Part shown: one piece after another, positions 1,359-63,970 of the stretch
Numbering within the stretch: the first letter of the stretch is position 1
Layout: every line of letters starts with the position of its first letter
Origin: a virus
Virus record (IMG/VR): IMGVR_UViG_3300045988_101799
Length of the DNA: 64,000 nucleotides
Strand: one strand, 5' to 3'
The notes under the pieces: generated by a model
Told to the model about the DNA's origin: nothing
Database searches by the model: none
Seen by the model: the letters and a program-made list of their open reading frames with translations, nothing else
Position numbers and translations under genes: made by a program

Positions 1359-1392
1359 AAACCATAAATCGCTCTACAAAAACAAAACAGAT

Positions 1393-2619: not shown

Positions 2620-2645
2620 TAAAACCCAGATACTATTATCCGTAC

Positions 2646-6079: not shown

Positions 6080-6695
6080 ATCAGTAATAGATAAACAGGT
6101 TGAGGCCGCAGAGATAATGGGTCGTATCTGCTATAAAAGCGAACCGAAGGGCGACCCCATTGCGTTTCTCTCCCGTATCATTAACCGCGGACATGAAAGT
6201 GTCATCGAGCATATCAATATTCCCGCAGTCCTCCTGACGGACAGGGCAGTTACCCACCAGCTTGTCCGTCATCGTCACATGAGCGTGAGCATGGAGAGCC
6301 AGAGGTTCGTCAACTACTCCCGGAAGGGAACCATTTGCTTCACTCGTCCGCAGTTCTTTAGCGACGAGAAGGTTGACCCGAAGACCATTGAAGAGTTTAA
6401 GGATACCTGCCAGAACCTTGCGGAGAAGTACGTGGAACTTATCCAAGGGGGACTGCCTCCCGAGGAGGCGCGGGGATTGCTTCCGAACTGCACGGCTACG
6501 GTGATTGGCGTGACTGCTAACCTCCGCGAGTGGAGGCACATCTTCCGTATGCGACTAGACGGTGCGGCCCAGCCGCAAATCCGTGCGCTCCTTCTGGCCC
6601 TCCGGCAAAAGATGGAATTGAAGTATGACCTCGCATGGGCATTCAAGGACATCCCAGTTGATACTAACCGACTTCATTCCGTTCCAGAACTATGA
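6033..6695 (+). CDS. thyX: flavin-dependent thymidylate synthase ThyX
   Basis: ThyX signature RHRHMSVSMESQR (RHRxxSxxxxSxR) and HESVIEH motif; start placed at ATG 6033; ATGA overlap with the next gene at 6692. Confidence 0.85.
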   Translation: MNVLWINQEVTLPLTKSVIDKQVEAAEIMGRICYKSEPKGDPIAFLSRIINRGHESVIEHINIPAVLLTDRAVTHQLVRHRHMSVSMESQRFVNYSRKGTICFTRPQFFSDEKVDPKTIEEFKDTCQNLAEKYVELIQGGLPPEEARGLLPNCTATVIGVTANLREWRHIFRMRLDGAAQPQIRALLLALRQKMELKYDLAWAFKDIPVDTNRLHSVPEL

Positions 6696-7297
6696 GCCGT
6701 ATCAGTCTCAAGAAGTATCGGGAACAGATGGAAGCCGATATGAAGGCCAATCGCCTAAAGCGTCGAAGAGGAAAGTTCAAGTGCAAGAAATATAAAGGAA
6801 AATTTTACTGGTATCGAGATAGTCCCGCGGAGCAAAGGAAGTTCTTGAGGGAGACAAAAGCTAACAAGCTTCGGTCTCGCATCATGCCTGAACATAAGCA
6901 ACTTATCCATGCCTCTCTCCGGTCGAAGAAACAACTGACCGAGGAACAACTAACCTATGGTCGCATCCTTGCGTCCAATAAAATATCTACTGGTGCAGTT
7001 GGAGAAACTACCCCAGATGAAACCCCTAGCTGGATTAAGGGGGACAACTCCTTTTTCTTCCAGTTTAAATTTCATGGCTATTTCATCAAAGGTATAGTCC
7101 CCGTGGCTCTTGTTGGAAGTTCCTCTGCGGTTCTGGAAATATGCAGGAAGGCGTACAAGTTCGCACGGAGAATTACAAGGAAGTGGACAGTCAAAGAAGG
7201 ATGTTTAACTCTACCCTCTCCCCGCCTCTTCGTCATAGCCAAGATGTCTATTCGCAAATATATCAACAAACAAATTTACAAGCACCTCACCAAATAA
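6692..7297 (+). CDS. hypothetical basic protein (K/R-rich N-terminus)
   Basis: 201-aa ORF translationally coupled (ATGA) to thyX. Confidence 0.45.
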   Translation: MSRISLKKYREQMEADMKANRLKRRRGKFKCKKYKGKFYWYRDSPAEQRKFLRETKANKLRSRIMPEHKQLIHASLRSKKQLTEEQLTYGRILASNKISTGAVGETTPDETPSWIKGDNSFFFQFKFHGYFIKGIVPVALVGSSSAVLEICRKAYKFARRITRKWTVKEGCLTLPSPRLFVIAKMSIRKYINKQIYKHLTK

Positions 7298-7298
7298 C

Positions 7299-7805
7299 AT
7301 GCACGCTCACGAAGCAATCAACGCAATCGTTTCAACCAAGGTAAACTCACAGGCTTTCCCCGACCTGCCGGAAGGAAAGGAATCCATGAACGATGCCGTC
7401 AACCACCCGAAGCATTACACCTCCCACCCCAGCGGAATCGAGACCATAGAAATTACTGGCAAGCTTCCCTTCGCATTAGGGAACGCCGTCAAGTATTTGA
7501 TGCGGTCACAGTACAAGAAGAACCGTATTGAAGACCTCAAGAAAGCACGATGGTATTTGGAGTACCACGCTAAGCACTGGTCCAAGGTGTTCGAAACGTT
7601 TGACCTTTACCTTATCCTTGAACAGTTCAGGCGTACAGTCATGAGCCATAGCTACCAACGTAGTCCCGAAGATTCCATTCTGGTACAGCTCTTCTATATC
7701 TGGGCGCATGATAAGTTGGTTGAGGTAAACCCCGCATCAGAATTGCAACGATGTATCGGAGAGATTACCCAGCTAATAGAATCCCTCGAAGCGAAACAGA
7801 ACTAA
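7299..7805 (+). CDS. DUF3310-type / MazG-like nucleotide pyrophosphohydrolase family protein
   Basis: Motifs NHPKHY..GIE.IE...F.LGNAVKYLMR......EDLKKARWYL, which I recognise as typical of the phage DUF3310 family. Confidence 0.55.
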   Translation: MHAHEAINAIVSTKVNSQAFPDLPEGKESMNDAVNHPKHYTSHPSGIETIEITGKLPFALGNAVKYLMRSQYKKNRIEDLKKARWYLEYHAKHWSKVFETFDLYLILEQFRRTVMSHSYQRSPEDSILVQLFYIWAHDKLVEVNPASELQRCIGEITQLIESLEAKQN

Positions 7806-14900: not shown

Positions 14901-17900
14901 GGTCTCCCATAGCATCAAGGGCCTCCGAAAGCATGGTTCGCATGGTGTCGAGGTTTTCCTTATTTGGGAATGACAGGGTATTGGGCAAGTCGTTAATGGC
15001 TTCTGCCATGAAGGAGCTTGCCGCGGCACTGCCCTCATAGGTATGTATTTCGGAGGCCCGTTCAACTAGGTTGCGGAACTGGGTGAAGTTGCTGATACCC
15101 ATACGGACTGCGCCATCCACCCATGCCTTGCGGGTTTCGTCGGAGACAACTAGACTTTCATGGGCAATGGATTTGTCCACCCATTCGCGGGCAACTTCCG
15201 CGGCATCCCCCTTCTCCCCGGCAATCTCGATAACCTTCTTTCCGGTTTCTACCAAGCTTTCCGGCACATTGTTTTTGGTAATGGCTTTGCCCGTTTCCTC
15301 GATGATGTTGCTCGCATCTTTCGTAATATCCGGTAGCATGGAAGTAGCATCCTTTACATCGAGAGTGGGGGCGGCTTCGGTTTGGAAACGTATGTTCCCC
15401 TCACCAGCTAAGTGGCTACCAACGTAGCCGCCGATACCTCCGAGGAAAGCAATCTTCATAGCCCCACTAATCACTTGGTCAGTAGTGGCAATAGAAGATT
15501 CGGAGATTTCTCCGTTCTTCACCAGTTCGGTAAATGCCCATTCTTGGAATTCGTCTGTCAGTTCTTCGGTGGCTCCTTCCACTACGGCCTTGCTCGTGCT
15601 GTACAGATAGGAAGCAACGGCAAACGTCTTTTCCTTCGTGTTCATCTCCTTAAATGGCTTGCTTCTCCATCCGGCCATCTTCCGTTCAAGAGTTTGGAAT
15701 GGAGATTGACCGCGAAGGTTTTTAGCCCCAACAATCTTACGCATGTAGGAATCCATACCTGCGCGGTTGTTGATGAGAGTACTACCAGTAGATACGAGAG
15801 CCGCACCAAAGAGGGCACGCATGTTGGCAATGCTCTGTGCCCTGTTCGTGTTCTCGGCAGTCGGTTCCTTCCCTTCCATCTCCCTATCATAAATGGTATA
15901 GAAGATGTCGGAGTAAGCATTCGGTGCAACCTGCGAGATGATGCTAAGATTTACCCCAGCTCCGGCTCCTGCCCGTTCGAGGTTCAACGCCGCAAGGTTG
16001 TCGAGGTTGCGCTGAATAGTTCCACTCAAACGTCCCGCCAATCCCGGACGGGCGGCAGGGACAAGAGCTTCGGCCCGCTTCGCTACGACGTTAGCCGTTG
16101 CCTTCGCGAACCGCGATAGCGCGGTACGTTCCAGTGCACGGCCAGCGAGGCCGCCAACTTTACCAGCTCCCGCGGTCGCTACCATTTGGTAGCCGAGGTT
16201 AGCGATTTCCGCAGTATAGTCCGCAAGGATATTGCCTCGAACAAGTTCAGCTTCCGCTTCCTGTTTTTTGTTCAGCTGGTCCCAGAGGGTGCGGGTATGT
16301 TCCATCGCCGCACGACTGCCAACTGCATTCTGTGCAAAGAGAAGAGCACCATAGGCGGTACTTGTCCCAAGGTCGATTGCCTTGTGCGTACCTATCTGTA
16401 ACCCGCGGAGAACAGAGTTGATGGTGTCTTGCCCTTTCTCCTGCCATGCGGAGAGGATGTCCTCGTCGCTCTTGCCCGCTTCCTTCTGTTCGTTGTAAAA
16501 ATTCTTGAAGGAAAGGTGCTTGTCCAGATGCTTCATGGATTCAGTCAAGATAGGGTTGAACTGCAAGCCGGAGCCAAGCCACGTATCGCGAAGCGTCCCC
16601 AGCGTCTCGTCCAATGCAATGTTGTCCTTCACAAGTTCCTGTGCGGATTTCTTGCGGAGGTTCTGGAACTTCTCAATGGTGCGATTGATGAGACCTTCGT
16701 CCGCGCCACTAGCACGGAGAGCCTCTATGCTCTGGTCCATCAGCTTATCATTGTAGAGAGCATTGGGGTTCAGTTCGAGTGTGGCGTTCGTATCAACTTC
16801 CTTGGTGTGCGGGTTGTACGCAAAGAGACTGCCACGGCCAACACCCAAGTCACCCATACGTGCGGCATGGGAGAGGGAGTTAAGGGCATCGCGAGTACTT
16901 TCAATATGGTACTGGGCCATGTATTCCTTCAACTGTTCGGGACCTACTTCAAAGGATGGGCCGCCCGGCACGCCATACTGCCATGAGCCACGCTTCGTTC
17001 CCTTCCCCCATTCCATCAAGCTCATTGGGTCAGCGGTCTTACCCACACTATTATCCGGCTGGAAGGTAAGTACGTCCGCAATTTGTCCCGCCGTGCTTCG
17101 GTAGTTAGCCATTGCGCCTTTGACTGCATCCATGAGGGTGCCTCTCGGTGTAGCTTTGGCGGTATAGTCCTGAATCAGTTTGGTTACTCCCGCTTGACGC
17201 AGGGCGGATTTTGGAACCCCCGGAAACCTTGTGGCCACGGCTTCCAGTATAGCCTCACTCATGCCAATCTGTTCGGGGTTTTCGACGGTCAGAGGGCGGT
17301 CCTTCTGGCGGTGAACTTCCTCGGCAATGACCTTTGCCCGTGCACGTATTGCGTCCATGTCAGCACCGGGGACTAAAGACAGAAGGGCAGAGGCCGCGGC
17401 CTCTGGATTGAGAAGCGCGTCGCGAAGTTCGAGATAGGGAAGGCCAGTGTAGTCCTCTTCGAGGCGTCTTACGATTTTGTCTGCGGCTTCTATCTGTTCA
17501 CGAATCCTATCATCAACAGGTTTTTCTTTTTTTGAAATGAGTTTTGCTTGGTCTGTATGGAGTTGTTTCGCATACGCTGTAGCAGATTCCGGGGATTTAA
17601 TATCTTCCGTACTCCGGGAAAGGTAATCCCCGTAGTCGCGGACAAGCTGGAACATTTTGCTGGGAGACTTGGAAAGGTTGGCGAGTTCAGCAAAAACATT
17701 CCCAGTAAATGAAGGTGCTGAATCAGAGAATTCGCCAACGCCAAGCTCCCCCACGCTCGTTTGGCTGGGAGTTTTCTTCTGCACGCCCTCCGTCGAAGAA
17801 GAGCGGTGTTTGTCGTAAAGAGCCTTAGCGGCACGATAGTTGCCAATGTCTTCGCGCCTAATCGTATTGATGACGCTTTCTATTTCTTCTGCGGTGTAAG

Positions 17901-18681
17901 CAATAGGTGCGGTCTCGATGGCTTGTGCCGTAGGTTTACCTGTTCCAACATCTAGATTCGAGTTGAGGTAATCCTTCCGGGCCTTCTCCATTGTGGTGGC
18001 AATGGATTTGGCCACCGCCTTTGCGTTACGGTTTCTGTCCGCGGCAATGGCGAGGAACTTTTCCGTCACGACGGGGTTCCCGTCCTCTCCACTTCCGAAG
18101 CCAGAGCGGGATAAGAAGGCGGAGTGCGTAGGCGTAAGCTCGGAAGAAGACACAACGGTAATTCCCGTATTGTTAGCAAGCTTCTTAATGGCCTCGCTAT
18201 CGCCGCGGGAGGCGGCCGTCAAATCAACCAGTGCATCCTCTCCGCGCTCTACATAGTCTTTCATGTAGTCGAATCCCTCAAAGCTGTACCCACGGTTTCC
18301 TTTGTTCAAGATGTCGAGGGCTTTATTTTCCTCGGCGGTTTTCCATTCTTGTTCCGTATGGGCGCGGGATTTATCTTGCCATTCTACATTCTTCGCGTGT
18401 TCCGCATCCTTTTTCTGTTTCTCCGCAAAGTCATCAACAGACTTAAAGAGGAAGGTGTCATAGTCTGCGGTCGCCGTCGCTCCCTTCTCGGCACGGGTCT
18501 GTCTCTTTTCCGCTAACCTTTGCTCGCGGTCCAGTGCTTTCTGTTCTCGGTCCCGCTGTTTCTGCGCTTGCGTCTCTTGCCACGCGGCGTGCCTTTCTAC
18601 GGCACGCTGTTCACGTGCAATACTACTTCCCGACGTCGGAGTGAAGTCGGACATATTGGCGGTACTAAAGTCAATAGCCAT
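8986..18681 (-). CDS. 3231-aa multidomain virion-associated protein (function unknown); contains HExxH zincin-like motif
   Basis: Uninterrupted 9.7 kb ORF directly downstream of the tail genes; HEVIH in TGTVLHEVIHLIDRH; long predicted coiled-coil/alpha regions; no DxDGD RNAP motif seen. Confidence 0.75.
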   Translation of the reverse strand: MAIDFSTANMSDFTPTSGSSIAREQRAVERHAAWQETQAQKQRDREQKALDREQRLAEKRQTRAEKGATATADYDTFLFKSVDDFAEKQKKDAEHAKNVEWQDKSRAHTEQEWKTAEENKALDILNKGNRGYSFEGFDYMKDYVERGEDALVDLTAASRGDSEAIKKLANNTGITVVSSSELTPTHSAFLSRSGFGSGEDGNPVVTEKFLAIAADRNRNAKAVAKSIATTMEKARKDYLNSNLDVGTGKPTAQAIETAPIAYTAEEIESVINTIRREDIGNYRAAKALYDKHRSSSTEGVQKKTPSQTSVGELGVGEFSDSAPSFTGNVFAELANLSKSPSKMFQLVRDYGDYLSRSTEDIKSPESATAYAKQLHTDQAKLISKKEKPVDDRIREQIEAADKIVRRLEEDYTGLPYLELRDALLNPEAAASALLSLVPGADMDAIRARAKVIAEEVHRQKDRPLTVENPEQIGMSEAILEAVATRFPGVPKSALRQAGVTKLIQDYTAKATPRGTLMDAVKGAMANYRSTAGQIADVLTFQPDNSVGKTADPMSLMEWGKGTKRGSWQYGVPGGPSFEVGPEQLKEYMAQYHIESTRDALNSLSHAARMGDLGVGRGSLFAYNPHTKEVDTNATLELNPNALYNDKLMDQSIEALRASGADEGLINRTIEKFQNLRKKSAQELVKDNIALDETLGTLRDTWLGSGLQFNPILTESMKHLDKHLSFKNFYNEQKEAGKSDEDILSAWQEKGQDTINSVLRGLQIGTHKAIDLGTSTAYGALLFAQNAVGSRAAMEHTRTLWDQLNKKQEAEAELVRGNILADYTAEIANLGYQMVATAGAGKVGGLAGRALERTALSRFAKATANVVAKRAEALVPAARPGLAGRLSGTIQRNLDNLAALNLERAGAGAGVNLSIISQVAPNAYSDIFYTIYDREMEGKEPTAENTNRAQSIANMRALFGAALVSTGSTLINNRAGMDSYMRKIVGAKNLRGQSPFQTLERKMAGWRSKPFKEMNTKEKTFAVASYLYSTSKAVVEGATEELTDEFQEWAFTELVKNGEISESSIATTDQVISGAMKIAFLGGIGGYVGSHLAGEGNIRFQTEAAPTLDVKDATSMLPDITKDASNIIEETGKAITKNNVPESLVETGKKVIEIAGEKGDAAEVAREWVDKSIAHESLVVSDETRKAWVDGAVRMGISNFTQFRNLVERASEIHTYEGSAAASSFMAEAINDLPNTLSFPNKENLDTMRTMLSEALDAMGDRVQVIEVDDDLSILTTGDEDLDAALHVINGLTEAAATTESPATTATTEPKESPVAIARKERDNAIAPITAMVETGVVTPSSVETVDNMDAAIASFDSNTGAWLSYGTPLERGAKLVSLNEMTGINAPMITSNTGETIVIAPHASMYNAGEGGTPSTKWGDKVSALNLPTDGTGANAYGILSDLQVNASPAQAAAIDGVLRALHAAGLDVAIRATNAPANISSPASITYMNGTDGKLVGGVIDLYVNRDNAIESVTGTVLHEVIHLIDRHLRTTNTDYSQRMDKIRSAIAENYNNIVDSLSAMYDASVDINEMNAIAALASDLNYGLRGPDEFASVAFSNPVMNFMVAEASGDNITITDLARYAEAAGGRKPIHVRLVEWLKDLIRDVRQTADDMDGTTAAERVAEWDSYVARVADMTPGKWFDMPRTPSWKVDDTDYTMGNGVDYFNPMAYETDMTRRLSFGLGAEIIGTNAGNWVTSIKNGWLGVTKNWDKAGINVKSEEQKLVVLEQMANVNAAYERSIKRIDKIGDMLQRRADNLGWDAATRKKWSKSILDMSGNMDNDIDPETVARINAEAQAEVRQHEQTRDFRIALAKKTVTDAVNRHAEAVRLANSLALNSEGRLEINDMMRRIKDMSGKGYGAMLDKQVALPMLSQQIHKSLSDLGSRISATGDANLETAYFGLARDTQNYLADMINEADSPFSMDELLDRWSNLRNDFLYAESTNHPAVAPMIQDIAKARAEAKQIIREAKEDFYAATKKAGVTRAGVATPAGSVWLKRDNAILNARRQKQAEYMAKRDAAEQWLLSQGVVGQLVHNVIADSRKEIAATQISIAKLIGDSRMADNAAEMNYLHRTYMAVGRHAGDFTRTMKDIIANPNGELAQKYDGLTKLLQEAAISHAEAHQRELSENVSQVLDNMQALAALHDELKLPLVSAPTGASANYKLLFEGVAKNYRNREILDFIQNNFGAVQMLADLRDGHNISAIYDKAMSMIAQADYHTKSKMTETKETLDMKARDSFLAEVFSDLPGKTIADKIGSLDSPASVASEVNKVIPTIPTSAIDQIWNAPNMNAAERLDKTLNLLRGQAGILMGANNMGNVISATDLKVLQYPELSRLAVNDAMKAIDEVLSKKRTNEDALAQRKRLPEWQRKAMYELSDLTIGDAIGTLQNTLSMQSKIAVNQLLADEYTSVLKAQGVVVPPNSTNRTSDMVEISLKNTKNALNGMYADKDVADAIYRIYRPSDDILNSRTDDYKKVRKYWQKSGKGQEWWSKAGGLANLSVLIASPNSTLRNLYGTVAQMTHAGALPFTGSKDIANLVGDWVQLRKLWWLSQGRDLASQASADRLLAAEDRYNEKIRYWQELGLLDAGQGEFLRNVWKSDEFSKMAGEFEEVNEDSFFKLAEALNEKQERTKGEVAKDAAKMAGKVVAWPIKTMSFAYGLPDAAAKIVLFTNQRAIADTQLKVQLARAMGKDTPNARDQILIDASQTTQSWNAYVDRYTAHMVKSLLPTGSRTPSWVKTLNIVAAPFFMFQYHTAQSVVYNLGHAIGEGVDGVWAINNGMKKEGAYLLGRAFVRIAGSVGTISATSAVSSWVARQIITSVLGDDDDRKIIDDAEVMRKLADSGLIPDYDKFGDLIGIIDMKRHEFEYLNLEYMNPFKTIKVLAKTLPSLFMDMDVDKWGMNKVAELKNLLENTVLEESLLLNAASELFNEEDFNYKHSLSGDESVNVLPAVGNAILLAAGLNPSFGSGHTWQVLERFATVANKKIPFYGWAVKSGKQAFSDTPDMSAAAYGLQSLGAGLRRPKDLTEALAAGLKNANAAVTKSKRTSVLRPDFYKRMESGVDVELMEAVETADAVKNFTKLVNSVRFVTEITNMLDPALRKEVLASAIETSGMSAKTYGAAMKGIMPYIISPQAGREAIAKLNRELQKSNTTDEGKRLIEEQKKLIINLMRKGSIQIDGALSAEEIHNRMKQ

Positions 18682-31363: not shown

Positions 31364-31717
31364 TTAGATTGTTTGTGGCCGGAAGATGTCACGACAGAAA
31401 GTGATACCTTTCGGAGTTAGTTTACTTTTAGTCTGTCTCCTCGACCCCCTCACTCCCTCGTATTCAATATACCCTTTTTCTTCCAGCTTGCGCAGGATAG
31501 AGTAAAGAGAAGATATGGGGATGCGAGTGCCCTCACTTATTGTCGGATTCTCATGTTTCTGCTCGAAGCCATTGGCGTGCATGTACAGAAGGACACGTAT
31601 GTTATCAATGGTGAGGGAGAAGTCAAGGAGGTCAATATTCAGAAGGAGACCGAGCAAGGCTCGCTGATTGCTCTGGCCCTTCTGTACGGTTCTGGTTGTG
31701 GAGTAGGTCGTTCTCAT
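31364..31717 (-). CDS. winged-helix (PadR/MarR-like) DNA-binding protein
   Basis: ISSLYSILRKLEEKGYIEYEG, a typical PadR-like recognition helix/wing. Confidence 0.45.
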   Translation of the reverse strand: MRTTYSTTRTVQKGQSNQRALLGLLLNIDLLDFSLTIDNIRVLLYMHANGFEQKHENPTISEGTRIPISSLYSILRKLEEKGYIEYEGVRGSRRQTKSKLTPKGITFCRDIFRPQTI

Positions 31718-46812: not shown

Positions 46813-47481
46813 TTATTTTTCGTCAGCTTCGGGCTTTTCGCCCTTCTTCTTGAGCTTCAAGGTGATGGTACGGGCCGCGCTTCCTTCTTCCAGTTCGGGA
46901 CGGGTTCCGTCCTTGTTCAGAGTTACTGGTCCACCCTGCAATCCCATCTGTGTCACTATCTCGGTTTGTTCCAGCTCGAACTGCTGGATGACCTGTGACA
47001 GTAGGTCCATGTCGCGCTTCGCAATCGCTTCGTTAAACTTCTCCCACAGACCGTGGCTTCGCTCCATGATAGAGAGGAAGAGAGGTACATCCTTAATTGA
47101 TTGTATCTCTGCGTCGGCCATGAAGGAAGCGACACGGGAGAATCCACTGTTCATCAGTTCTTTGTACTGGCTACTCATGGATTCAACGATGTCAAGCTCT
47201 ATCTTCGTCCTCGCCTCTTGGCGTTGGAGGATGCGTGCCTGTGTGTTCTGTGTGTACGTATTGAGAAGTTCATTGCGGATAGCCAGTTCCTCCTTCGAGA
47301 GTTGGACGCTATCAACAATCTTATCAACACGTTCACGGGGGAGGCCAGTAACTTCCGAGATGACAGGAACCGGGGTCCCTGCCTTGTACATCTCAATGGC
47401 CTTCCTTATAACGGTGTTCTCGTTAGTGATTGGTTTGGGGGCGGCTATCTTTGCGGCGGCTCTTAAATCCATCAGTTCCAA
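46813..47481 (-). CDS. HTH-containing protein adjacent to TerL (small terminase subunit candidate)
   Basis: 222 aa; N-terminal HTH-like AGTPVPVISEVTGLPRERVDKIV; overlaps the TerL stop. Confidence 0.4.
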   Translation of the reverse strand: MELMDLRAAAKIAAPKPITNENTVIRKAIEMYKAGTPVPVISEVTGLPRERVDKIVDSVQLSKEELAIRNELLNTYTQNTQARILQRQEARTKIELDIVESMSSQYKELMNSGFSRVASFMADAEIQSIKDVPLFLSIMERSHGLWEKFNEAIAKRDMDLLSQVIQQFELEQTEIVTQMGLQGGPVTLNKDGTRPELEEGSAARTITLKLKKKGEKPEADEK

Positions 47482-49316
47482 AGGGTTTGCATTGCGGCGG
47501 TTACGTCGGAGGCAAAGGTGTCGCGGGCAGGAGCGGAGGCAGGAGCGGGGGCATTGCCTCCGACGAAGCCTCCGAGGTACCTGCCAATGTCTGCGGCTTC
47601 GATGTACGCAGTCCCGTCTTCGCGATATTTGATTACCTCTTGATGTTCTACCACCTTATGGTTCTGAATGTCAAGCCTAATCTTACCGAACTCCGGCCCC
47701 ATGATTCCCCGGCACACGTGCACCAATAGTGCTAGTGCGTCCGCGTTGTCCGGGGATTTATGAATCCGCTTCTTCATGGCCGCCTTGGGTTCCACGGCAA
47801 TTCGGGTTCCATTCATGGTGTAGAGCCGGGATTTAAGCTCGACGATAGTTGTCGGGTCGAGGCCATAAAGTTGGCGAGCGTTGATTGCCAGTTTCATACA
47901 TCCCCAAAGCTCGGAGACCTTGTTGCTATATTGCTGACATGCCTCCTGATTCTGCAACAGGCCAATGGGCACTTTGCTCGCCATACCCGCGAAGCTGACC
48001 GTCTGGAAGTCTGTGCCGACATGCTGGGCGAGGATGTCGATGAAACCAGTACCTCCGGTTACGTCCACGGCAAGGTACTTACTTTCAACCCCGTTGGCCC
48101 GGAGAATCTCTCCAACTTGCTGGGCGATGTCGAAGTTTCGTTGCTTCATCCGTTCCTTGTCGGACGTAGACTTCAACAAATAGGTACGGAAGACTGCACA
48201 AGCCCAAAGCCCTTCAACCGTTCGTCCGACTTTGGCGAGTTTAAGGCAGGACTGGTCGCCGCCGTTGGTGTAGGCAGGGTCCAATCCTGCGATGGTAATC
48301 AACTCGCCGTCTCCCCAGACGGGCATGGCATCCGCGCCACTGCCGTAAATTTCAGCCTCCGACATTAGTGAACCTTCTTCCGTATCATCTGAAAAGGTAG
48401 CCCGGTGGAACCGCATCACGAACGGACTATTCTCCCCGTACTGTTCAATCGTTTGCTGAACGATGTTCAACGGGGTGTAGAAGCTCCAATCCTCGCGGCC
48501 ATATTTGATGCGGGGGTTTTGAGTGTTATCGAAGCGGATGTAAATCCCGTCCTTGGTCTCCCATTCATATTCCTCAAAGATGTCAACGCTGTTCCACCCA
48601 TCCTTGGGCATAGCCATAACACCAAAGGCATCGGTGCGGCTCTTGGGGTTAGAGGCGGCCATCAGGGTAGGCGGCGTGTCCGCTCTGTTGGTGATGAGGT
48701 TGGTACGCCACACCTCGACGAGTTCAATCGGCAATTCGGAAAGCTCGTCATAAAATACGTGCATGTTCTTTGCCTTAATACCGATAAATCGGCTACTGGG
48801 GTCGCCGACGTTCGCGCAGGGGATAATGGAGATGCCGCGGGAATCATCAATATCTCCGTCCTCGTTCACGCCTTTAATCTGTCCCTTACCATCAACGAGC
48901 TTACCCGGAAATTCCTTGCGCCACAACCGTTTAATATCCTTGAAGATACGTTTCTTCGCACCCTCAATAGTAGTCGATGTGACTAGGCAAAGAGTATCGA
49001 CGGGGTCGGCCAGATAGAAGAGCGTCGCCATGATAGCCATAGATAATGACTTCCCAGAGGACGAGCCTCCACCCATGATGACCACATCATATTTGCACGC
49101 GGTTTCAATCATCCGTTCAATCCACGGTGTCCAGATAATGGGAGTAGGACTGCCCTTGTAATTCCACAGGAGATTGATGGCGTTCTTAGCGTGTCCATAC
49201 CTGCCCAGCCCTCCCTTCTCTTCGGGCCATGCGTATTTGAAGCACCAGAGTTCGATGTCCAATTCCGAAACTCCGTACTCCCATTGTCGTCCATAGCGGG
49301 TAAAGTGTCGTGCCAT
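47472..49316 (-). CDS. terL: terminase large subunit
   Basis: Walker A VIMGGGSSSGKS; ATPase plus C-terminal nuclease-domain length (614 aa). Confidence 0.85.
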   Translation of the reverse strand: MARHFTRYGRQWEYGVSELDIELWCFKYAWPEEKGGLGRYGHAKNAINLLWNYKGSPTPIIWTPWIERMIETACKYDVVIMGGGSSSGKSLSMAIMATLFYLADPVDTLCLVTSTTIEGAKKRIFKDIKRLWRKEFPGKLVDGKGQIKGVNEDGDIDDSRGISIIPCANVGDPSSRFIGIKAKNMHVFYDELSELPIELVEVWRTNLITNRADTPPTLMAASNPKSRTDAFGVMAMPKDGWNSVDIFEEYEWETKDGIYIRFDNTQNPRIKYGREDWSFYTPLNIVQQTIEQYGENSPFVMRFHRATFSDDTEEGSLMSEAEIYGSGADAMPVWGDGELITIAGLDPAYTNGGDQSCLKLAKVGRTVEGLWACAVFRTYLLKSTSDKERMKQRNFDIAQQVGEILRANGVESKYLAVDVTGGTGFIDILAQHVGTDFQTVSFAGMASKVPIGLLQNQEACQQYSNKVSELWGCMKLAINARQLYGLDPTTIVELKSRLYTMNGTRIAVEPKAAMKKRIHKSPDNADALALLVHVCRGIMGPEFGKIRLDIQNHKVVEHQEVIKYREDGTAYIEAADIGRYLGGFVGGNAPAPASAPARDTFASDVTAAMQTLWN

Positions 49317-55983: not shown

Positions 55984-56283
55984 CTATATGTTAATACCCA
56001 TCCAGTGGCAGAAGAGGGAGGGGACAATAAAGAAGGCAGTACCGAGAATGACCAGTCCGTAGAACATATGCTCCTTCTTCGGAATAGAAATCATGGCCGC
56101 GGCAAAGAGAATCTGAATCAGGCTCATGCCGACAACGGTCAAGAAGCACATCATCCAAGAAGACTGGGGCAGGTGTGATTTAAGGTACGTGACAAAGTAT
56201 AAAGGACAGATGAAGGCATACGGAAGCATCCGTACCATGTCCATGAAGTTATCCCTAAATCTTTGAGAGTATGTTGTAGTCAT
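55984..56283 (-). CDS. small membrane protein (3 TM)
   Basis: Hydrophobic 99-aa ORF. Confidence 0.4.
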   Translation of the reverse strand: MTTTYSQRFRDNFMDMVRMLPYAFICPLYFVTYLKSHLPQSSWMMCFLTVVGMSLIQILFAAAMISIPKKEHMFYGLVILGTAFFIVPSLFCHWMGINI

Positions 56284-56436
56284 GTTTATTGCTTGTTTGC
56301 TTTTATTATTCTATGGGATTAGCGGAACGGGATTGGCCCCGCCCCGGAATCCCGGTGACGAGGCCAATATATCACGTGTTAGATTTTTGTCAAGAAGTTT
56401 TTAGAAGAAATTTTTGAGGGAGTTGTAACTCGCTCA

Positions 56437-59367
56437 CTATCCTACAATTACTTCTTGGCGTTGTTTGTCCTGTTCTTCCCATTCGGGGAAGTCCCGATAC
56501 CAACGGGCCTTAGTACTGTCGCTTGCGTACTTGAGCCAGTCCTCTACATAAAGGAACCTCATGCGCCTCCTTCCTCCCGACATCTGTTTTGCTTTCCACA
56601 ATGCTTCATCTTGGAAGTAGGTAACGACGGCTGTCTTAAACCCGGTGATGGCCTGACGCTTAGGAACGTTGTTGGAACGGGGCTGGTCGGTTACTACTCC
56701 TGTATCTCGAATGGTGTAGAGAATTTGCAGGAGAGCTTGCGGCCCCGTATAGGTGAGAGGAATGCGCTTCCACAGGGGGTTGCCATCCTTGTCCGTATCT
56801 ACATCCCAATCAACGGGACGAAGCTGGGTTACAAAGGATTCTTCCGCGGATTCCCGCATACCATACTTGGTGTTTATCTCTTGGGACTTCTGCACTACTC
56901 GGTCTACCAACTCGTTAATGTCCTCGCTTAGTGAGTGGTAGTTCTGATGCACTTGTGCCCATAGTTGCTGTATATCTATGGAATCACGGACCTTCTTCGC
57001 CTTTGCTAGGTCTCCTCCCACACTGCGGACATAAAGGACAGAGTAGCGGCGGTTCCCCGTAGTATCCGTCAGCGGGTTGGGGTCGTTGGTAGTACCAATG
57101 AACACTGCCTTCGGATTATACTTCTGCTGGTTGCGCTGGTATGCCGCACGGGTTTTAGCAGGTTGGAGGTCAAGGGAGTTCTTCACTTCGTTAGCCTTAT
57201 CCGGGTCCGAGAGGATTCGGTCAATCTCGTCCAGCTGGATGACATGGGTACTGCTCTTCTGCACGATAGCATCCTTCTCGTTGCGAATGTCGAAGCTACC
57301 CGAAAAGCATCCGGGATAGTTGGCAAGAAGCTTAGTAGTCCAATGGGATTTACCGCATCCTTGGCCCCCAATGAAGATGGGGCAGAAGATGGAGCACATG
57401 TTGTTGACATCCTCCATCGACTTCTCCACGTGGTCGATAACCGTGTAGAGCCATGTACGAAGCACGAATTCGAGCCATTCCTTCTCGGTATAGCCTTCCG
57501 GGGCCATGCCCTCTTCCAGTTCGAGGGTATGGATGTACTGTCCCACTCGGTCAATACCATCCCAAGGCTTTACGCGCAGTGTGGAAGCGAGGGGGTGATA
57601 GAAGTAGTTGGTGGAGACACTAAGGAAAGTTGCGTCCAGTTCGTGTTGTACTTTGGGAGTGGACATCCCTCCGGCCAGATATTTGGCCCACTTGCCCGCG
57701 ATGTGGTTCACGAATTCCGGGTCGTAGGGGTAGAGCTTTTTACCCACGAGGTCCAATACCAGCTTGGTATCATTGGCAACATCGGTCACAATGCGGAGAC
57801 CAATAGAGGCAAGAAGGAATTCAACGTTCTCATATATTACGGGAACAGTGCCTCTCTTCTGGTCTCTGGTCGGGAAGTCGAAGTCAGCCCAGCGTTCCGG
57901 TTTCTTCGCCTGATAGTGCTTCCCTTCCGGCAGAGGTCCGGCCTCGGCTAGGATTTTCTTTAACGCCTCGTCGGGGTTATATATCTTAGCCAGTAGGGAT
58001 TCGGATTCAGATTCCGAAGCGGAGGGTGCGATGGGAGCGATGTCTCTGTTCTCGATGTCCAGCACATACATGCGGAACAGGTCATTCATGCTCTTCACCT
58101 TCCGGTCCTTGTCTTGGCAGGAGCTATGGAGGCAATGGAACCATGAGGTAGATGGGAAGTCCCGGACAATGTTGAATTGAAGGTCCCGGTCAGCACGATG
58201 CCCCGTACATACATGGGCGCATGCGGGGCACATGCCGTACATGTGATTCCCTTCCCAGCGCATTGCCCGGAAGCCCTCGGCCTGTTCGGTGTAGCCATTA
58301 TCGTCCAGCCACTTGGGGAACTCGGAGATAAGAATGGGAAGCGGGTCCCGCTCGGTCAGGAGGTCATCCTCTGCCGCGGGAGCCACGGTTTCCTTGGTAG
58401 CCCGTTCGACCAGCTTGTCAAGGGAGGGCACGGTAAATACCCGCGGCGTATCCTTAGCCCGTTCCACCAACTCCCCGTGGTAGAGGAACTGCAACCGGGA
58501 GATGTCCTTACATGCGGGGTCGCAGGTCAGACCGGAGAGGTTGTACACTTGGTCCCACAGGTATTTGCAGATTAGCTGGTGGCGAGCCTGACGAATAGCC
58601 GCGAGGTACTTGCCCATGTCAGGGATATGGGTATCCGTGGAATCCGTGGAATCCGTGGAATCCGTGGAATCCGTGGAATCCGTGGAATCCGTGGAATCCG
58701 GGGGTTCCGAGATGTTGAGAGCCTCGCGTGCCCGTTCATCGACTTGGACGAAGAACTTGAACCCGCCGCTGGGGCTGACGTACCCGAACAAGTAACCGGG
58801 CAAGTGGGAGAGCTTATCCTCGGCAATGCGTTTAAGTTCCTCCGTAGTGGCGGGGTTCGTATCTTCATCCTTCTTCTTTAGGTCAATGTCCAGACCAATG
58901 ATGCCGGAGTGGGACCAGAAGGAGATAGCCCGGCGCAATGCGGTACGTGGGTCAACGGTCTTCTTATTCTCGCCCAGCATAGATGAGACGGAATGGAAGA
59001 TGACGGAAGGGATGAGGGCAGGAAGCGCGTTCTTGACCTTCACCTCACCGTCAGGGCTATTCTCCTTCCATCGGGTATAGACCTTCTCATAGGCGGGAGC
59101 CAATGGCGCACGAAGCGGCCGCCCTGCCTGTTTATCGAGAAGGAGTGATAATTGGAGACTTGTCTTTAACCGCTCGTCCGCGATGTCGTTACTGCGGAGG
59201 AAGTTAATGAGACAGTCGATTGTAATTGCCTGTGGATTCTTTCCGCTTCCGGTAAAGACGCGAGGAGCGTTACTCCGCTCCAACAAATCCCAAGGCGTGG
59301 GGATTAGAGTAATGGATTGCATACTTTTATGTGTAAGGCATAGGGGCGTGGACGGCGTAGTCCGCAC
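56437..59367 (-). CDS. DNA primase/helicase (D5-like SF3 helicase with N-terminal primase region)
   Basis: Walker A FIGGQGCGKSHWTTKL, Walker B VIQLDEIDR, Zn-binding HCLHSSCQDKDRK; 976 aa; contains the (STD)n repeat. Confidence 0.7.
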   Translation of the reverse strand: MRTTPSTPLCLTHKSMQSITLIPTPWDLLERSNAPRVFTGSGKNPQAITIDCLINFLRSNDIADERLKTSLQLSLLLDKQAGRPLRAPLAPAYEKVYTRWKENSPDGEVKVKNALPALIPSVIFHSVSSMLGENKKTVDPRTALRRAISFWSHSGIIGLDIDLKKKDEDTNPATTEELKRIAEDKLSHLPGYLFGYVSPSGGFKFFVQVDERAREALNISEPPDSTDSTDSTDSTDSTDSTDSTDTHIPDMGKYLAAIRQARHQLICKYLWDQVYNLSGLTCDPACKDISRLQFLYHGELVERAKDTPRVFTVPSLDKLVERATKETVAPAAEDDLLTERDPLPILISEFPKWLDDNGYTEQAEGFRAMRWEGNHMYGMCPACAHVCTGHRADRDLQFNIVRDFPSTSWFHCLHSSCQDKDRKVKSMNDLFRMYVLDIENRDIAPIAPSASESESESLLAKIYNPDEALKKILAEAGPLPEGKHYQAKKPERWADFDFPTRDQKRGTVPVIYENVEFLLASIGLRIVTDVANDTKLVLDLVGKKLYPYDPEFVNHIAGKWAKYLAGGMSTPKVQHELDATFLSVSTNYFYHPLASTLRVKPWDGIDRVGQYIHTLELEEGMAPEGYTEKEWLEFVLRTWLYTVIDHVEKSMEDVNNMCSIFCPIFIGGQGCGKSHWTTKLLANYPGCFSGSFDIRNEKDAIVQKSSTHVIQLDEIDRILSDPDKANEVKNSLDLQPAKTRAAYQRNQQKYNPKAVFIGTTNDPNPLTDTTGNRRYSVLYVRSVGGDLAKAKKVRDSIDIQQLWAQVHQNYHSLSEDINELVDRVVQKSQEINTKYGMRESAEESFVTQLRPVDWDVDTDKDGNPLWKRIPLTYTGPQALLQILYTIRDTGVVTDQPRSNNVPKRQAITGFKTAVVTYFQDEALWKAKQMSGGRRRMRFLYVEDWLKYASDSTKARWYRDFPEWEEQDKQRQEVIVG
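58632..58703. repeat. 9-nt coding microsatellite (AATCCGTGG)x~8 encoding (STD)n inside the primase/helicase
   Basis: Six perfect plus two degenerate copies. Confidence 0.9.
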
Positions 59368-59460
59368 CCTCGTGGCCTATGGTTTGAATTGCCGAACGGT
59401 GTCCGTCGGTGTCCAAAGCTACCACGGGTTCCGGGGGTTGTCAAGTAGAATCTACGGCCT

Positions 59461-59960
59461 ATAACAAGCACGTAACAAGCAATATTTAGAGTAGTTGTTA
59501 CGGTAAGTGATTGAGTATATACGACTTAACAACTATAACAAGCATAACAAGCAAAAATCGTAGTTAAACGTGTACGCACCTCGTCCTCGTGCCGTATGGC
59601 GGTCGCGCTACGCGCTCCGCGGACCATGTTTTTATGATAGGGACAGGGCTAAATCGAAGAGGTATTGAAACTGAATGAGTTAGCGTAACAACCTATCAAA
59701 ATCTCGACGTAAGATGTTAAGAGCCAAGGACTTAACAACTGAAGCACGAAAGAGGTTGTTACGCTGGACCATTGAAACTGAATGAGTTAACAACTATAAC
59801 AAGCAAACAAGCAAATTCTACAGACTCTATATATGTGTATATATGGCCTCCCCTATACCCTCTTTTCTTATATATCTTCTATTTTTGCTTGTTTTGGTTG
59901 TTATAGTTGTTAAACTATTAAAAAAGAAGGGGTTAGCGTAACAACTACTCTAAATCATAC
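59461..59960. repeat. iteron-rich AT-rich region (putative replication origin) upstream of the primase/helicase
   Basis: Multiple direct and inverted copies of TAACAAGCA, TTAACAACTATAACAAGCA, CGTAACAAC, ATTGAAACTGAATGAGTTA, plus a TATATATGTGTATATAT tract. Confidence 0.55.
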
Positions 59961-60325
59961 TTGTTATAGGTTGTTAGTAGATGTTACAAGATTGAGAATG
60001 AATGGATTAAGAGAACAGCATTGGGCGTCAGCCCCTTATGAGTATGGGGTTCTCCGGCTAAAGAAAAACCCTTCGGAAGCAGGACATGCCTACCTCCGAA
60101 GGGCTACGCCTTGGGAACATCAACCTAGGAGATGGGTGACAGGAGGGCGTTGCTTCGAGTAGGTCTTACTTCTTACCTTACTGCCTACCCTCCGCGCGTT
60201 GCCCTCCTGTCTGGCCGTATAATACCAGCCCGCTCGAAAAAGTCAAGACAATCCTCTGCCAATATGTTATTTTGTTATGCACGCGTATATACGCGCCCAC
60301 ATGTGTGTATGCACCATCTCCAAAT

Positions 60326-60396
60326 CCCCTGAATTTAATCGAGGGTCCTACCCTAGAACGCGCCGCACGGGGCGGTCCGCTACAACTGTCCACCCG
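60326..60396. repeat. about 60-70 bp direct repeat, copy 1
   Basis: GAATTTAATCGAGGGTCCTACCCTAGAACGCGCC...GGTCCGCTACAACT; second copy at 60804..60874. Confidence 0.8.
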
Positions 60397-60803
60397 GACC
60401 CCATCCCCTCCTTCTACCCCGCCACACTGGATTAAATTCGTAAACGCGCCATCACACCAATTTCCTCTTGACTTTCTCCCCTGATGTGATATGTTGCACC
60501 TGTTCGCTCCGAACGGCAACCGAACCAGCTAAGCTCAATGCTTCTGGCTATCCCAAGCAAGGAACTTGCTCGCCACAGGAGCGGACCAAACACTCTCCTT
60601 TCTACAGGCATTTTCCATAGTTACGCCCGTGGGTAGTCTCGTCAAGCTACCTGCGGGCTTTTTCTTTACCGCCAAATCCGCGAGAGCCGCTCCGACGCAT
60701 CATGCCCGCCGTGCGCAAATTTGGTCGATGGTAGTGCCCTATCTCCTGTTTCATGACTAATGTACCCTCTCGCTACCTATACCCCGTCACACTCTTGTAA
60801 ATT

Positions 60804-60874
60804 TGCCCGAATTTAATCGAGGGTCCTACCCTAGAACGCGCCACAACCGCTGGTCCGCTATAACTACCCGCCCG
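60804..60874. repeat. about 60-70 bp direct repeat, copy 2
   Basis: 34 bp identical to copy 1, followed by a similar tail. Confidence 0.8.
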
Positions 60875-60904
60875 AAGAGTATACCCGCCTTCTAGGTCGA
60901 TACG

Positions 60905-61038
60905 TCCCCGTGGAATGGCCGCATGTCGATTTTGCTTGACGTGGCAGGAATGGGGTGCAGACCAGATGAGGCTGAAACAGACCAGAAGTATATTCCACCC
61001 GTGGAACGGCCGCGTGTCGATTTTGCTTGACATGCCCA
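60905..61038. repeat. two roughly 40-bp direct repeats containing TTGAC
   Basis: CCGTGGAA(T/C)GGCCGC(A/G)TGTCGATTTTGCTTGAC occurs twice, about 90 bp apart. Confidence 0.75.
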
Positions 61039-61715
61039 GAAGGGTACCCCCTCCCCCGTACCCCACGGAAAAAATTTGACCCAACTATTTACTATGGGCC
61101 GCGTGCAACCCCGGAGCCTGGGAAACCGTGGTGGTGTTTGGATTTCCTTGGCATCCAATTTCCCCCCTATACCCACGGAATCGGTGCATCACGGAACCTT
61201 TTTGCCCCTGATTGCACCGGGAACGGTATGTTTCAGGGGCCTGCCTATCCCCCACATGTAGCGGAATCGGTATGATAGGCCACCGTATTGCAACGGGAAC
61301 GGTGCATTGCTTGCCCTGAACTGCCCTCGCCCCTGTCACGGGAACGGTACGCCATGCAACCCATTGAATCCCCTGAATCTGTTGCAACCGTTTGATGATA
61401 AGGAACTTATGGTATGAAGTGGTCTGTAGGTCTACATGGGAACCGAGGGTGCAAAGTCTGTTTCCCATTGGCACCCTGTTTTGCGTAACTCGTTGATACT
61501 CTAAGCAATCCGCTTCCATACTTCGCATAATACATATAATGCAAAATCGCGTTCCGGTTTTCCTACTAATCCGATAGGAATTGAAATTGAAGGTGCTGGA
61601 GAAGGCAGAAAAGGGGCAGGGTCTTGCCCTCAAATTGTTAAGGATACTTAATAGTTTCGATTCTTTAACTATTTTGGATACCCATGAGGGTATAGGTATC
61701 TAAACTCCCTTAAAA

Positions 61716-61950
61716 CTTACAAAGTTAGTCCAGACTTACAATGTTAGCCCAGACTTACAAAGTTAGTCCAGACTTACAAAGTTAGACGGCACTTACAATG
61801 TTAGCCCAGACTTACAAAGTTAGTCCAGACTTACAAAGTTAGGCAGGACTTACAAAGTTAGTCCAGACTTACAAAGTTAGACGGCACTTACAATGTTAGC
61901 CCAGACTTACAAAGTTAGTCCAGACTTACAAAGTTAGGCAGGACTTACAC
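61716..61950. repeat. 17-bp tandem repeat, about 14 copies, with roughly 85-bp higher-order periodicity
   Basis: CAGACTTACAAAGTTAG(T/A/G)C units with variants TTAGCC/TTAGAC/TTAGGC. Confidence 0.9.
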
Positions 61951-62025
61951 GAGGAATGTTTAAGAATCCTTAATAGTCAAATATTGGACTAATGGTTTTA
62001 CAATTTTGTAAAGCCCCTATATCTT

Positions 62026-62087
62026 GAACCCGTTGAACCCGTTGAAGCCGTTGAACCCGTTGAAGCCGTTGAACCCGTTGAAGCCGC
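62026..62087. repeat. 9-bp tandem repeat, about 7 copies
   Basis: GAACCCGTT/GAAGCCGTT alternating. Confidence 0.9.
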
Positions 62088-62200
62088 TATCCCACCACAA
62101 CTACCGGATTGCCCGATTGCCCGATTGTTCCACATGGAACAATCTATGCAATTCAAAAAGATACCAAAAGAAGCCAAAAGAATACCCTACACTATATAAA

Positions 62201-62295
62201 AGGGGGACCGGGAATCCGGGGGAACCGGGTGTGCCGTCTCTCTCTCTCTATATATATATAGGGGGAACCGGGGGAACCGGGGGAACCGAAGGGTT
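62201..62295. repeat. GGGAACCG repeats flanking a (CT)6(TA)6 alternating tract
   Basis: gggggaccgggaatccgggggaaccggg...ctctctctctctatatatatata...gggggaaccgggggaaccgggggaaccg. Confidence 0.85.
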
Positions 62296-62451
62296 GTATG
62301 ACACAATTATAACACGCAGATAATGAGCGAGTTACAACGCGCCGGAAAGAAAACCACTTGACGCCCCTCACAATCATGTTAAATTGCAATCATCCACCGG
62401 GGGAACAACCCGGAACAATGAGAACACTAACTAAAAGAAAGGATTAAAATC

Positions 62452-62814: not shown

Positions 62815-62936
62815 GCATCAGGAACTTACGATTTTTGTCATACAAAACAAAAAACTAGTTGACAAGGTAAGAAAATCTGCTAAAGTGGAATCATCAACGG
62901 GGGACAACCCTTAGAAACAATAGAAAGAATAATACT

Positions 62937-63326: not shown

Positions 63327-63405
63327 ATATGGGACCCGTTAAAGCTGAATAACTACGCCGCCCTACAATATCCAACCAACAAAACAATAGAAAGAAAACT
63401 AAACC

Positions 63406-63933: not shown

Positions 63934-63970
63934 CATATTAACAATAAAACAATAGAAAGAAATAAAACCA

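Follow-up and report, generated by a model that had tools for sequence, protein, structure and literature searches.

Background

Iteron origins coupled to an initiator gene are known from phage lambda, with its ori and O protein, and from satellite phage P4, with its ori/crr and alpha primase-helicase. Lambda also makes short, terminator-ended RNAs, such as oop and the PR'-tR' 6S RNA. Another RNA of this kind is the lambda small RNA PreS/LPR1 (bioRxiv 10.1101/2024.10.31.621285; review PMC12197685). In phage T5, the injection-stop (iss) region of 1,662 base pairs (bp) is non-coding. One unit is repeated nine times in tandem there, alongside many palindromes and direct or inverted repeats; the region exceeds the neighbouring open reading frames (ORFs) in conservation, and paired DnaA boxes have been proposed as its defining feature (bioRxiv 10.1101/866236). 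The lytic cycle of phages phi29 and Nf is suppressed through Spo0A sites, which are located close to origins and early promoters (PMC2731898). The present analysis concerns a gene-free stretch of the phage IMG/VR record IMGVR_UViG_3300045988_101799, of which 64,000 nucleotides (nt) were studied (hereafter the window). This stretch, called the gap below, covers positions 59325-62451 and does lie, as first described, between two divergent gene arms. Its parts appear to be of known kinds, namely an iteron origin, terminator-ended phage small RNAs, promoter/operator boxes and binding arrays; what is new is the sequence families and the unusual combination of elements.

A composite non-coding region in three modules

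The gap is made of three modules: A (59325-~60290), B (~60290-61640) and C (61640-62450). It is probably a composite non-coding control centre, with an origin in A, RNA and transcription control in B and tandem arrays in C. The evidence comes largely from relatives (loci designated by L numbers). In L038, L063, L064 and L072, the PolA gene is 94-98% identical to that of the window at the nucleotide level, which makes them the same phage at backbone level, whereas the amino acid (aa) identity of their primases to that of the window is 64%, 34%, 34% and 30%, respectively. In L063, L064 and L072 the primase gene has been replaced together with 59325-60290, only 0-12% of which aligns. The primase of L038 is a diverged homologue (76% aligns at 76% nucleotide identity), and only 12% of module A aligns there. 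The breakpoints of similarity between cassette types fall at 60138-60314. To the right of them identity is again 94-96%, up to ~61640, beyond which it is 73-81% with patchy coverage, as it is in the early genes. At least five primase types are seen (100/88, 64, 45-50, 33-34 and 30% identity).

Three of these four loci carry an extra helper gene of 291-315 aa or similar, and the helper proteins found in some cassette types (249-337 aa) belong to no known family. Exchange of the primase gene, with or without the helper gene, together with the candidate origin corresponds to window positions 56272-60314 and is observed at loci L020, L038, L063, L066 and L072, between genomes that elsewhere share ~95% identity. 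A perfect 14-bp palindrome, CGCGTATATACGCG (60282-60295), stands between the divergent promoters at the cassette boundary, where breakpoints lie at 60291-60314. An early impression that module B is ultra-conserved came from comparison with the primase and was abandoned: B (94-96%) is conserved like PolA (94-98%), and the primase cassette is the outlier.

On the sequence evidence, the gap is non-coding. The original prediction saw no credible ORF at 59368-62451, and this is confirmed for a slightly larger region: the conserved start of the primase is ATG 59324 (M16 of the 976-aa ORF, invariant in alignment A1) and not GTG 59367, so that the gap begins at 59325, 43 nt more than was noted. The three longest ORFs of the gap (113, 103 and 182 aa) all have TTG starts on the minus strand, match nothing in Pfam or PHROG, and contain indels of 1-4 nt in relatives. 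In each 150-nt bin of an 11-sequence alignment, the three codon positions have equal shares of the variable sites, and no 3-base periodicity of substitutions is detected anywhere in 59368-61640 with 11-16 relatives. The gap holds no tRNA. Rfam 15 gives no match at gathering score over the whole window, GOLLD, ROOL, CsrB and 6S included, and at E<=10 the gap yields only a spurious microRNA match (E=8.9).

It is highly unlikely that the gap hides protein-coding genes, either for small proteins or in the form of a gene read with a reassigned stop codon. When TAG is ignored, one minus-strand frame is indeed open for 428 codons across 61738-60454, but its translation is not protein-like, its variable sites show no codon periodicity and relatives carry frameshifting indels, for which reasons it was rejected as a TAG-recoded gene; the absence of Pfam and PHROG matches and the normal reading of the remaining genome with the standard code point the same way. 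That the repeats are assembly artefacts is hardly credible. Assemblies do break at the tandem arrays, yet the same ordered elements recur in many samples and assemblers, also in contigs that span the whole gap (for example L001, L006, L011, L017, L044, L048, L050 and L059). Dozens of independent human-gut contigs from IMG/VR, ENA and Logan carry the region, which is therefore real.

Every repeat family listed in the original prediction is present and above chance, although several details change, as described below for each module. Their description as unrelated was overstated: several families share a GGAAY/GRAAYC core, so that not all are independent, and the 13 GGAAYSG sites of the gap are all on the plus strand.

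Candidate replication origin

The original prediction assigned a probable origin to the region as a whole. Only its primase-proximal part, module A, is retained here as the best candidate, because the iteron word changes with the primase type and the cassette is swapped with the primase. The primase-helicase gene (56437-59324, minus strand) has a match to Pfam VapE-like_dom (E=1e-27), a BT4734-like N-terminal domain and a DUF5906 match. The promoter-like site of its arm, TTGACA-N17-TAGCTT (59416-59444, minus strand), was found in our own scan and belongs to a class of ~24 gene-proximal sites in the window. Next comes the origin-like iteron cluster (59461-59980), composed of five copies of TAACAAGCA, ten of TAACAAC/GTTGTTA, composite units and 19-mers. 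All copies of TAACAAGCA fall within 59462-59805, against 0.30 expected, and 10 of the 13 window copies of GTTGTTA/TAACAAC are in the gap, in both orientations. A composite unit of ~30 bp, TTAACAACTATAACAAGCA(T/A)AACAAGCAAA, occurs twice directly (59526 and 59787, plus strand) and once inverted (59884, minus strand), and the A/T-rich tracts TATATATGTGTATATAT (59827-59843) and TTTTCTTATATATCTTCTATTTTT (59862-59884) are located between the inverted units. The module also contains alternating purine-pyrimidine tracts, one GC-rich segment and an inverted repeat at 59660-59779 that gives a folding signal in a sliding-window scan. The cluster itself had been recognized earlier, at 59461-59960, with a 19-mer said to occur in both orientations; this 19-mer, ATTGAAACTGAATGAGTTA, is a direct repeat (59664 and 59771), of which inverted copies are only degenerate.

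The repeat word follows the primase. It is TAACAAGC/TAACAAC where the primase is 100% or 49-50% identical to that of the window, and TAACAAC only at 64% identity; it becomes CCTAACAAACC (ten copies) at 45%, ATGTCACAAA (six copies) at 34% and CTAACAGAG (four copies) at 30%. A/T runs of 10-27 nt are found in every cassette type. Repeats above chance, an adjoining A/T-rich tract and co-variation with an initiator gene, by which iteron origins are recognized, are thus all found in module A. Co-inheritance and co-variation of the repeats with a P4-alpha/D5-type primase-helicase form the pattern expected of an origin and its initiator, a reading well supported by the comparison of genomes.

In the mechanism proposed, module A would be the replication origin, the TAACAAGCA/TAACAAC copies bracketing A/T-rich tracts beside the primase promoter. 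The primase-helicase, or the helper protein in other cassette types, would bind the iterons, and the duplex would then be opened, according to the logic of lambda ori with the O protein and of P4 ori with the alpha protein. Origin and initiator gene would travel between genomes as one cassette.

Two considerations weigh against this location. Cumulative GC skew, suggested earlier as a check, does peak at 59-60 kilobases (kb), but as a maximum and not a minimum, which is the wrong polarity for a bacterial-type origin; since the maximum coincides with the switch of transcribed strand, the skew is not diagnostic and is not counted as origin evidence. The true initiator sites could also lie elsewhere, either in the 19-bp array of module C or in an array at 58633-58700, within the gene as in lambda O. 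The latter is a perfect 9-bp array of 7.6 copies of ATCCGTGGA in the primase-helicase ORF, where it encodes (DST)x8. Its word is similar to CCACGGAAY words that occur in the gap, and also to the arrays that L056 and L057 have in their non-coding cassette.

Two predicted small-RNA genes

Two divergent units to the right of the iterons have their own promoter and a predicted Rho-independent terminator and contain no ORF. They give substance to the divergent promoters (minus strand at 60246, plus strand at 60468) and to the structured RNAs that had been listed among possible functions. As predicted small-RNA genes they are well supported by comparative evidence. Both appear to represent new families, with no match in Rfam. 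Sliding-window folding flags the two RNAs, the inverted repeat at 59660-59779, the 19-bp array and a 22-bp palindrome.

The minus-strand unit (60056-60246) has a promoter TTGACT-N16-(TG)TATTAT at 60246-60219 and a terminator at 60105-60067 followed by a T-run. The predicted transcript of ~155 nt (60212-60058) folds with -68.7 kcal/mol (z=-4.2 versus shuffled sequences). Every cassette type has this promoter and terminator, around a body that varies from ~75 to 230 nt, and across the types 6 of the 15 terminator pairs are kept via double changes. This RNA would be read toward the origin, which it may activate or prime, or it may act as a regulated terminator.

The plus-strand unit (60468-60668) has a promoter TTGACT-N16-(TG)TATGTT at 60468-60495 and a terminator at 60625-60658, again followed by a T-run; its predicted transcript of ~165 nt (60502-60668) folds with -57.6 kcal/mol (z=-4.1 versus shuffled sequences). 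Mean column identity is 97% across 10 variants, and helix 4 has been exchanged in a compensatory manner, from GCAAG/CUUGC to GCGGG/UCCGC. The architecture recurs in relatives with PolA 76-77% identical, as a closed 5' domain, a linker of ~35 nt, a terminator and a box promoter. In a consensus with distant relatives, 8 of 19 predicted pairs are kept via two-sided changes, nearly all of them in the terminator, and CCUUUCUAYWGG is the only linker motif kept; its form in the window is CUCCUUUCUA.

The plus-strand RNA most likely acts by pairing with ribosome-binding regions, as its predicted fold and the words at gene starts suggest. The fold leaves CUCCUUUCUA single-stranded (60595-60604), a sequence that appears to be identical to the 3' tail that 16S ribosomal RNA (rRNA) has in many bacteria, Firmicutes included. 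In early genes, (C)CAAUAGAAAGA(A) or AGAAAGGA stands 6-9 nt ahead of the ATG, and TerL has UAGAAAGGA; from these words follows a complementarity of 7-11 nt between the RNA and start regions. Two results count against this account of the RNA. Its body is almost invariant, so that covariation is thin: two-sided changes affect 2 of 42 pairs and probably go back to a single event. A duplex-energy scan ranked no phage ribosome-binding region above background; the search gave no support because GC-rich chance duplexes dominate it.

A more specific proposal, which is decidedly unlikely, is that the plus-strand RNA mimics the anti-Shine-Dalgarno tail of 16S rRNA. Through the exposed CUCCUUUCUA, which is CCCUCCUUUCUA in distant relatives, it would mask messages led by a Shine-Dalgarno sequence. 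The masked messages might be host mRNAs generally, or phage early genes with CCAAUAGAAAGA at their starts. If the proposal were true, most phage genes, being leaderless or having no Shine-Dalgarno sequence, would escape masking, and the phage would achieve a translational take-over, or a shut-off of early genes, with RNA only.

Could the central 1.3 kb instead form one large ornate RNA of the GOLLD/ROOL kind, or a CsrB-like sponge with GGA loops? Such an RNA would fit the high conservation of the block and its many same-strand GGAA motifs, some of which may form hairpins of the ACCG-GGAA-CGGU type. Nevertheless it is very improbable, as no Rfam match appears even at E<=10 and structure in sliding windows is confined to the elements named above. 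In particular, 61040-61640 has no folding signal on either strand (z=+0.57 and -0.19, no better than shuffled sequences), a result on which, with the lack of an Rfam match, a large RNA or CsrB-like sponge there was rejected. The preferred reading remains that of two short RNA units.

Promoter-like boxes and other elements of module B

In module B, two divergent sigma70-type promoters would each give a short, structured, terminator-ended RNA. Downstream of the plus-strand RNA come two 24-nt boxes with a -35 hexamer, which would serve as promoter or operator, and then a cluster of GGAAY sites on one strand.

The boxes, GCCGCrTGTCGATTTTGCTTGACA, are found at 60918-60941 and 61009-61032 within two repeats (60907-61044, plus strand) that had been reported as 40 bp; the repeats are real and measure 47 nt at 85% identity (60907 and 60998). 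The two box matches in the window compare with 0.00 expected. Every relative has 2-4 copies, always oriented toward the early arm, and no other element is retained as far across the clade as this box. In relatives, a good extended -10 accompanies some copies, which would act as the promoter of the plus-strand RNA unit. Against a promoter role in the window stands the fact that both of its boxes are without a recognizable -10 hexamer at the right spacing, for which reason they may be operators rather than promoters. In L001, L003, L026 and L027, tandem GACAACC heptamers directly follow the TTTTGCTT of the box (window ~61026), so that a heptamer array can include the box's TTGAC.

An 18-nt core, TGTCGATTTTGCTTGACA, is present exactly in ~13 unrelated viral contig lineages (21 loci; L077-L098) with GC contents of 33-65%. 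A TATAAT-like hexamer follows ~17 nt after it in about half of these lineages, chiefly those of low GC, and the downstream genes are unrelated. The recurrence of the core in unrelated lineages before unrelated genes argues for a reader on the host side, and the box is read as a promoter or operator word for a putative host-side factor. The box sequence was not found in the literature searched.

It is possible to go further and to suppose that a host regulator docks at the boxes, and perhaps at other arrays. If this were, for example, Spo0A of a Firmicute that forms spores, early transcription and replication would be coupled to host physiology as in phi29 and Nf. The same ~13 lineages speak for it, as do the TGTCGAT of the core, one mismatch from the 0A box TGTCGAA, and a 54-nt box-promoter at the head of a contig binned to Oscillibacter (L075:1-54), where it is fused to a 5'-truncated DeoR-like gene. 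This identification is nonetheless quite improbable. The 0A box TGNCGAA is not matched in the box, a single copy in the gap (59390) leaves such words without enrichment, and no parS-like site was found in the gap; the host assignment comes from one contig of a metagenome-assembled genome whose start looks like a junction or chimera, and the 18-mer could represent no more than an upstream promoter element joined to a strong -35 hexamer. The start of L075 was also considered as a prophage junction and set aside: no integrase or recombinase is found in the phage ORFs scanned, and a chimera, or the junction of a mobile element, may account for the start. The wider reading of the box, as a word for a host-side factor, is kept.

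Several further elements belong to module B. Two direct repeats 478 bp apart had been estimated at ~65 bp; they are real and longer, 89 nt each at 80% identity, R1 at 60328-60416 and R2 at 60806-60894 (both plus strand). They share a 19-bp near-palindrome, TCGAGGGTCCTACCCTAGA, at 60339-60357 and 60817-60835, which occurs in R1 and R2 only, and each repeat stands ~110-120 bp upstream of a TTGAC hexamer. R1 contains an 8-nt hypervariable patch (60368-60375), which reads CGGGGCGG, ACCCTCCC, ACCATCCC or ACCTTCCC among otherwise identical relatives, the rest of the repeat being invariant. A conserved block at 61034-61165 (plus strand) is also present in distant relatives, with nhmmer matches in L056, L057 and L065. 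The cluster described as six copies of GG(G)AAYCGGT(R) exists and comprises five exact GGRAWCGGT sites, all on the plus strand at 61177-61348 and 32-45 bp apart; the window total of this motif is 10 against 2.8 expected, and GGGAAC and GGAATC interchange between relatives within the cluster. A sigma-54 promoter, TGGCAC...TTGC (61473), was rejected, as it has the right spacing only in L057 and is not conserved.

Tandem arrays before the first early promoter

Module C contains a series of elements that stand in the same order in relatives but differ in their units and copy numbers: a 19-bp array, a conserved hairpin with a promoter-like site, 9-bp and 8-bp arrays, a 22-bp palindrome, a 10-bp array, G-rich 9-mers and the early promoter. 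The first of them (61715-61949, plus strand) had been described as 17 bp x14 with a higher order of ~85 bp; it is in fact 19 bp x12.4, with a higher-order unit of 95 bp formed by five units in the pattern A-C-B-A-D, present twice. Each unit has a dyad core ACTnAC-N3-GTnAGT, absent elsewhere in the window, and a variable 5-nt tail. Relatives have from 2-3 to 12 copies, and the unit sequence varies too. Dyad symmetry of this kind is typical of sites bound by dimeric proteins. Among the proteins of the window, the sole DNA-binding candidate found is a sub-threshold winged helix (31364-31717). Bacteroidota sigma-A -7 boxes were considered in this array and rejected: TAACTTTG occurs nine times on the minus strand but at the wrong spacing to TTTG (11 or 30 nt, where the -33 TTTG/-7 TAnnTTTG consensus requires 19-21 nt), it is at chance level genome-wide, and the phage uses TTGACA-N17-TAnnnT sites instead.

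The conserved hairpin with its promoter-like site TTTACA-N17-TATCTT (61994-62025, plus strand) is 91-97% identical in relatives between variable flanks. The 9-bp x7 array TTGAA(C/G)CCG proposed earlier is confirmed by tandem-repeat detection (62024-62086, plus strand); in contig 117010 its unit TTGAACCCG is replaced by seven copies of TTGCACCCA. The segment 62107-62186, absent from the earlier list, includes GATTGCCC x2.6 (62107-62127), the 22-bp palindrome GATTGTTCCACATGGAACAATC (62123-62144) and a 10-bp x3 array (62156-62186), with a local fold of z=-6.3. Repeats of GGGGGAACC(G) then surround a (CT)6(TA)6 tract (62201-62295, plus strand), with GGGAACCG copies at 62220, 62263, 62272 and 62281 as had been noticed; there are seven GGGGGAACC repeats in L020, and a 17-mer replaces them in contig 117010. 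The module ends with the first early promoter, TTGACG-N16-TAAATT, and its leader (62358-62451, plus strand), which holds the hairpin CCGGGGGAACAACCCGG and AGAAAGGA before ATG 62452.

The arrays, which immediately precede the first early promoter, are most likely multimeric platforms for protein binding that evolve by slippage. They are not classed as a partition centromere of the parC/parS/sopC type, since no partition protein of the ParA, ParM or TubZ families, nor an adaptor, is found among the ~50 window ORFs scanned.

In an alternative view, modules B and C would chiefly represent the end of the genome and contain the packaging recognition site and a direct terminal repeat in collapsed form, perhaps also an element that controls injection, so that the repeats would serve DNA entry and packaging and not transcription. 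Such a function would be compatible with an origin and small RNAs in the same region. The arrays are placed where the first-entering end is expected, directly upstream of the first early promoter; many ~70-kb contigs of independent assemblies start or end inside 61600-62300; and the T5 iss region is likewise conserved, non-coding and repeat-rich (bioRxiv 10.1101/866236). These ends, however, are scattered over several repeats and not fixed at one nucleotide, and the contig checked closes on itself by an exact 55-nt overlap inside a tandem array, consistent with a join at assembler k-mer length, which makes contig ends uninformative about physical ends; they fit circular permutation as well as a collapsed terminal repeat. 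DnaA boxes are not found in the gap (TT[AT]TNCACA has no match in the gap and one in the window), and TerL has no counterpart among 50,697 phage records that would indicate a packaging type. Taken together, a genome-end function is unlikely, though it keeps an appreciable chance, and binding platforms for proteins remain the preferred reading of the arrays.

Genome context and host

The 64-kb window represents most of a ~70-kb phage genome, and many human-gut metagenomes contain close relatives in the form of ~70-kb contigs. The minus-strand arm (8329-59324) carries primase-helicase, PolA, helicase, exonuclease and TerL genes, followed by presumed structural genes without family matches, a 3231-aa ORF among them. 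The plus-strand arm starts at 62452 and resumes at 176-7805, where an NAD-dependent ligase and ThyX are encoded. Among 50,697 cultured-phage records nothing is similar to the phage at the DNA level, the gap included, and TerL (47472-49316) has no tblastn match; the 3231-aa ORF (8986-18681) matches neither Pfam nor PHROG. The unmatched TerL and 3231-aa ORF place the lineage very far from cultured phages. The primase has only remote matches in cultured phages, which cover about one third of the protein at 23-31% identity. The ~50 window ORFs scanned include no integrase or recombinase, and the phage is probably virulent.

The host is probably a gut Firmicute and not E. coli. It counts against a firmer assignment that the sole hint is the contig binned to Oscillibacter (L075). 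The window has no GATC site in its whole 64 kb, against ~250 expected; that it is avoided completely suggests that the host has a restriction system specific for GATC.

Our scan of the window identified a sigma70-type promoter class, TTGAC-N17-19-TAnnnT, often with an extended TG, which occurs 18 times on the minus strand and 6 times on the plus strand (~3 expected per strand), mostly just before genes. Several TTGACA-N17-TAnnnT promoters end 5-7 nt before an ATG, for example at 46810-46783, 35293-35266, 29429-29402 and 8969-8941 (minus strand), which implies leaderless mRNAs; a Shine-Dalgarno-like sequence is present in only ~10% of genes. Between the small early genes, promoter-plus-leader cassettes are repeated at 62340-62451, 62820-62936, 63382-63396, 63947-63961 and 589-601. 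They hold AATCATC..GGGGGA(A)CAACCC and the start-region word CAATAGAAAGAA, exist in many shuffled copies in relatives, and recall the mobile promoter-stem-loop cassettes of T4-type phages.

Implications

This lineage is recurrent in human-gut metagenomes and is without a cultured relative, and the majority of its proteins match no known family. The regulatory programme of genomes like this can be read in their non-coding DNA only. A candidate origin-initiator cassette swapped between near-identical genomes offers a clean natural experiment on origin specificity, and the two putative small-RNA families have defined predicted ends. An 18-nt promoter-associated word common to unrelated phages hints at a shared host factor, and ordered, rapidly changing tandem arrays can be traced across samples. 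All these points are testable with public metatranscriptomes and viromes ahead of culturing.

Comparison with known systems

The candidate origin shares with those of lambda and P4 the clustering of short direct and inverted repeats at an A/T-rich tract, beside or inside the initiator gene, and the co-variation of origin and initiator, which are exchanged as one module. The resemblance to P4 extends to the putative initiator, a P4-alpha/D5-type primase-helicase. In contrast to both, the repeat words are unrelated to the lambda and P4 iterons, and the candidate origin is located outside the gene, upstream of its promoter. Some cassette types also add a helper gene of 249-337 aa, unlike lambda and P4.

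The predicted small RNAs resemble oop, 6S and PreS of lambda in that each has a promoter of its own, measures ~75-200 nt and ends with an intrinsic terminator, and in being located in a control region near replication genes. Action by base pairing or as a regulated terminator, as for the lambda RNAs, is proposed. They differ in that no sequence or Rfam relationship exists, in that the host is probably a gut Firmicute and not E. coli, and in that the seed of the plus-strand RNA would copy the 3' tail of 16S rRNA.

The boxes recall the Spo0A sites of phi29 and Nf in that a host-factor-like word, TGTCGAT, is found just upstream of -35 hexamers in the control region of what is probably a lytic phage. 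The word is, unlike in these phages, one mismatch away from the 0A box, is not enriched and is not accompanied by parS sites.

Finally, the gap shares with the T5 iss region its kilobase scale, the absence of genes next to the earliest genes, many repeats and palindromes, a tandem array (~9 copies in T5) and an element order conserved among relatives. It differs from iss in its lack of DnaA boxes, and a terminal repeat at this location belongs to the genome-end interpretation only. Unlike iss, the gap also holds the predicted small-RNA units and an origin-like cassette.

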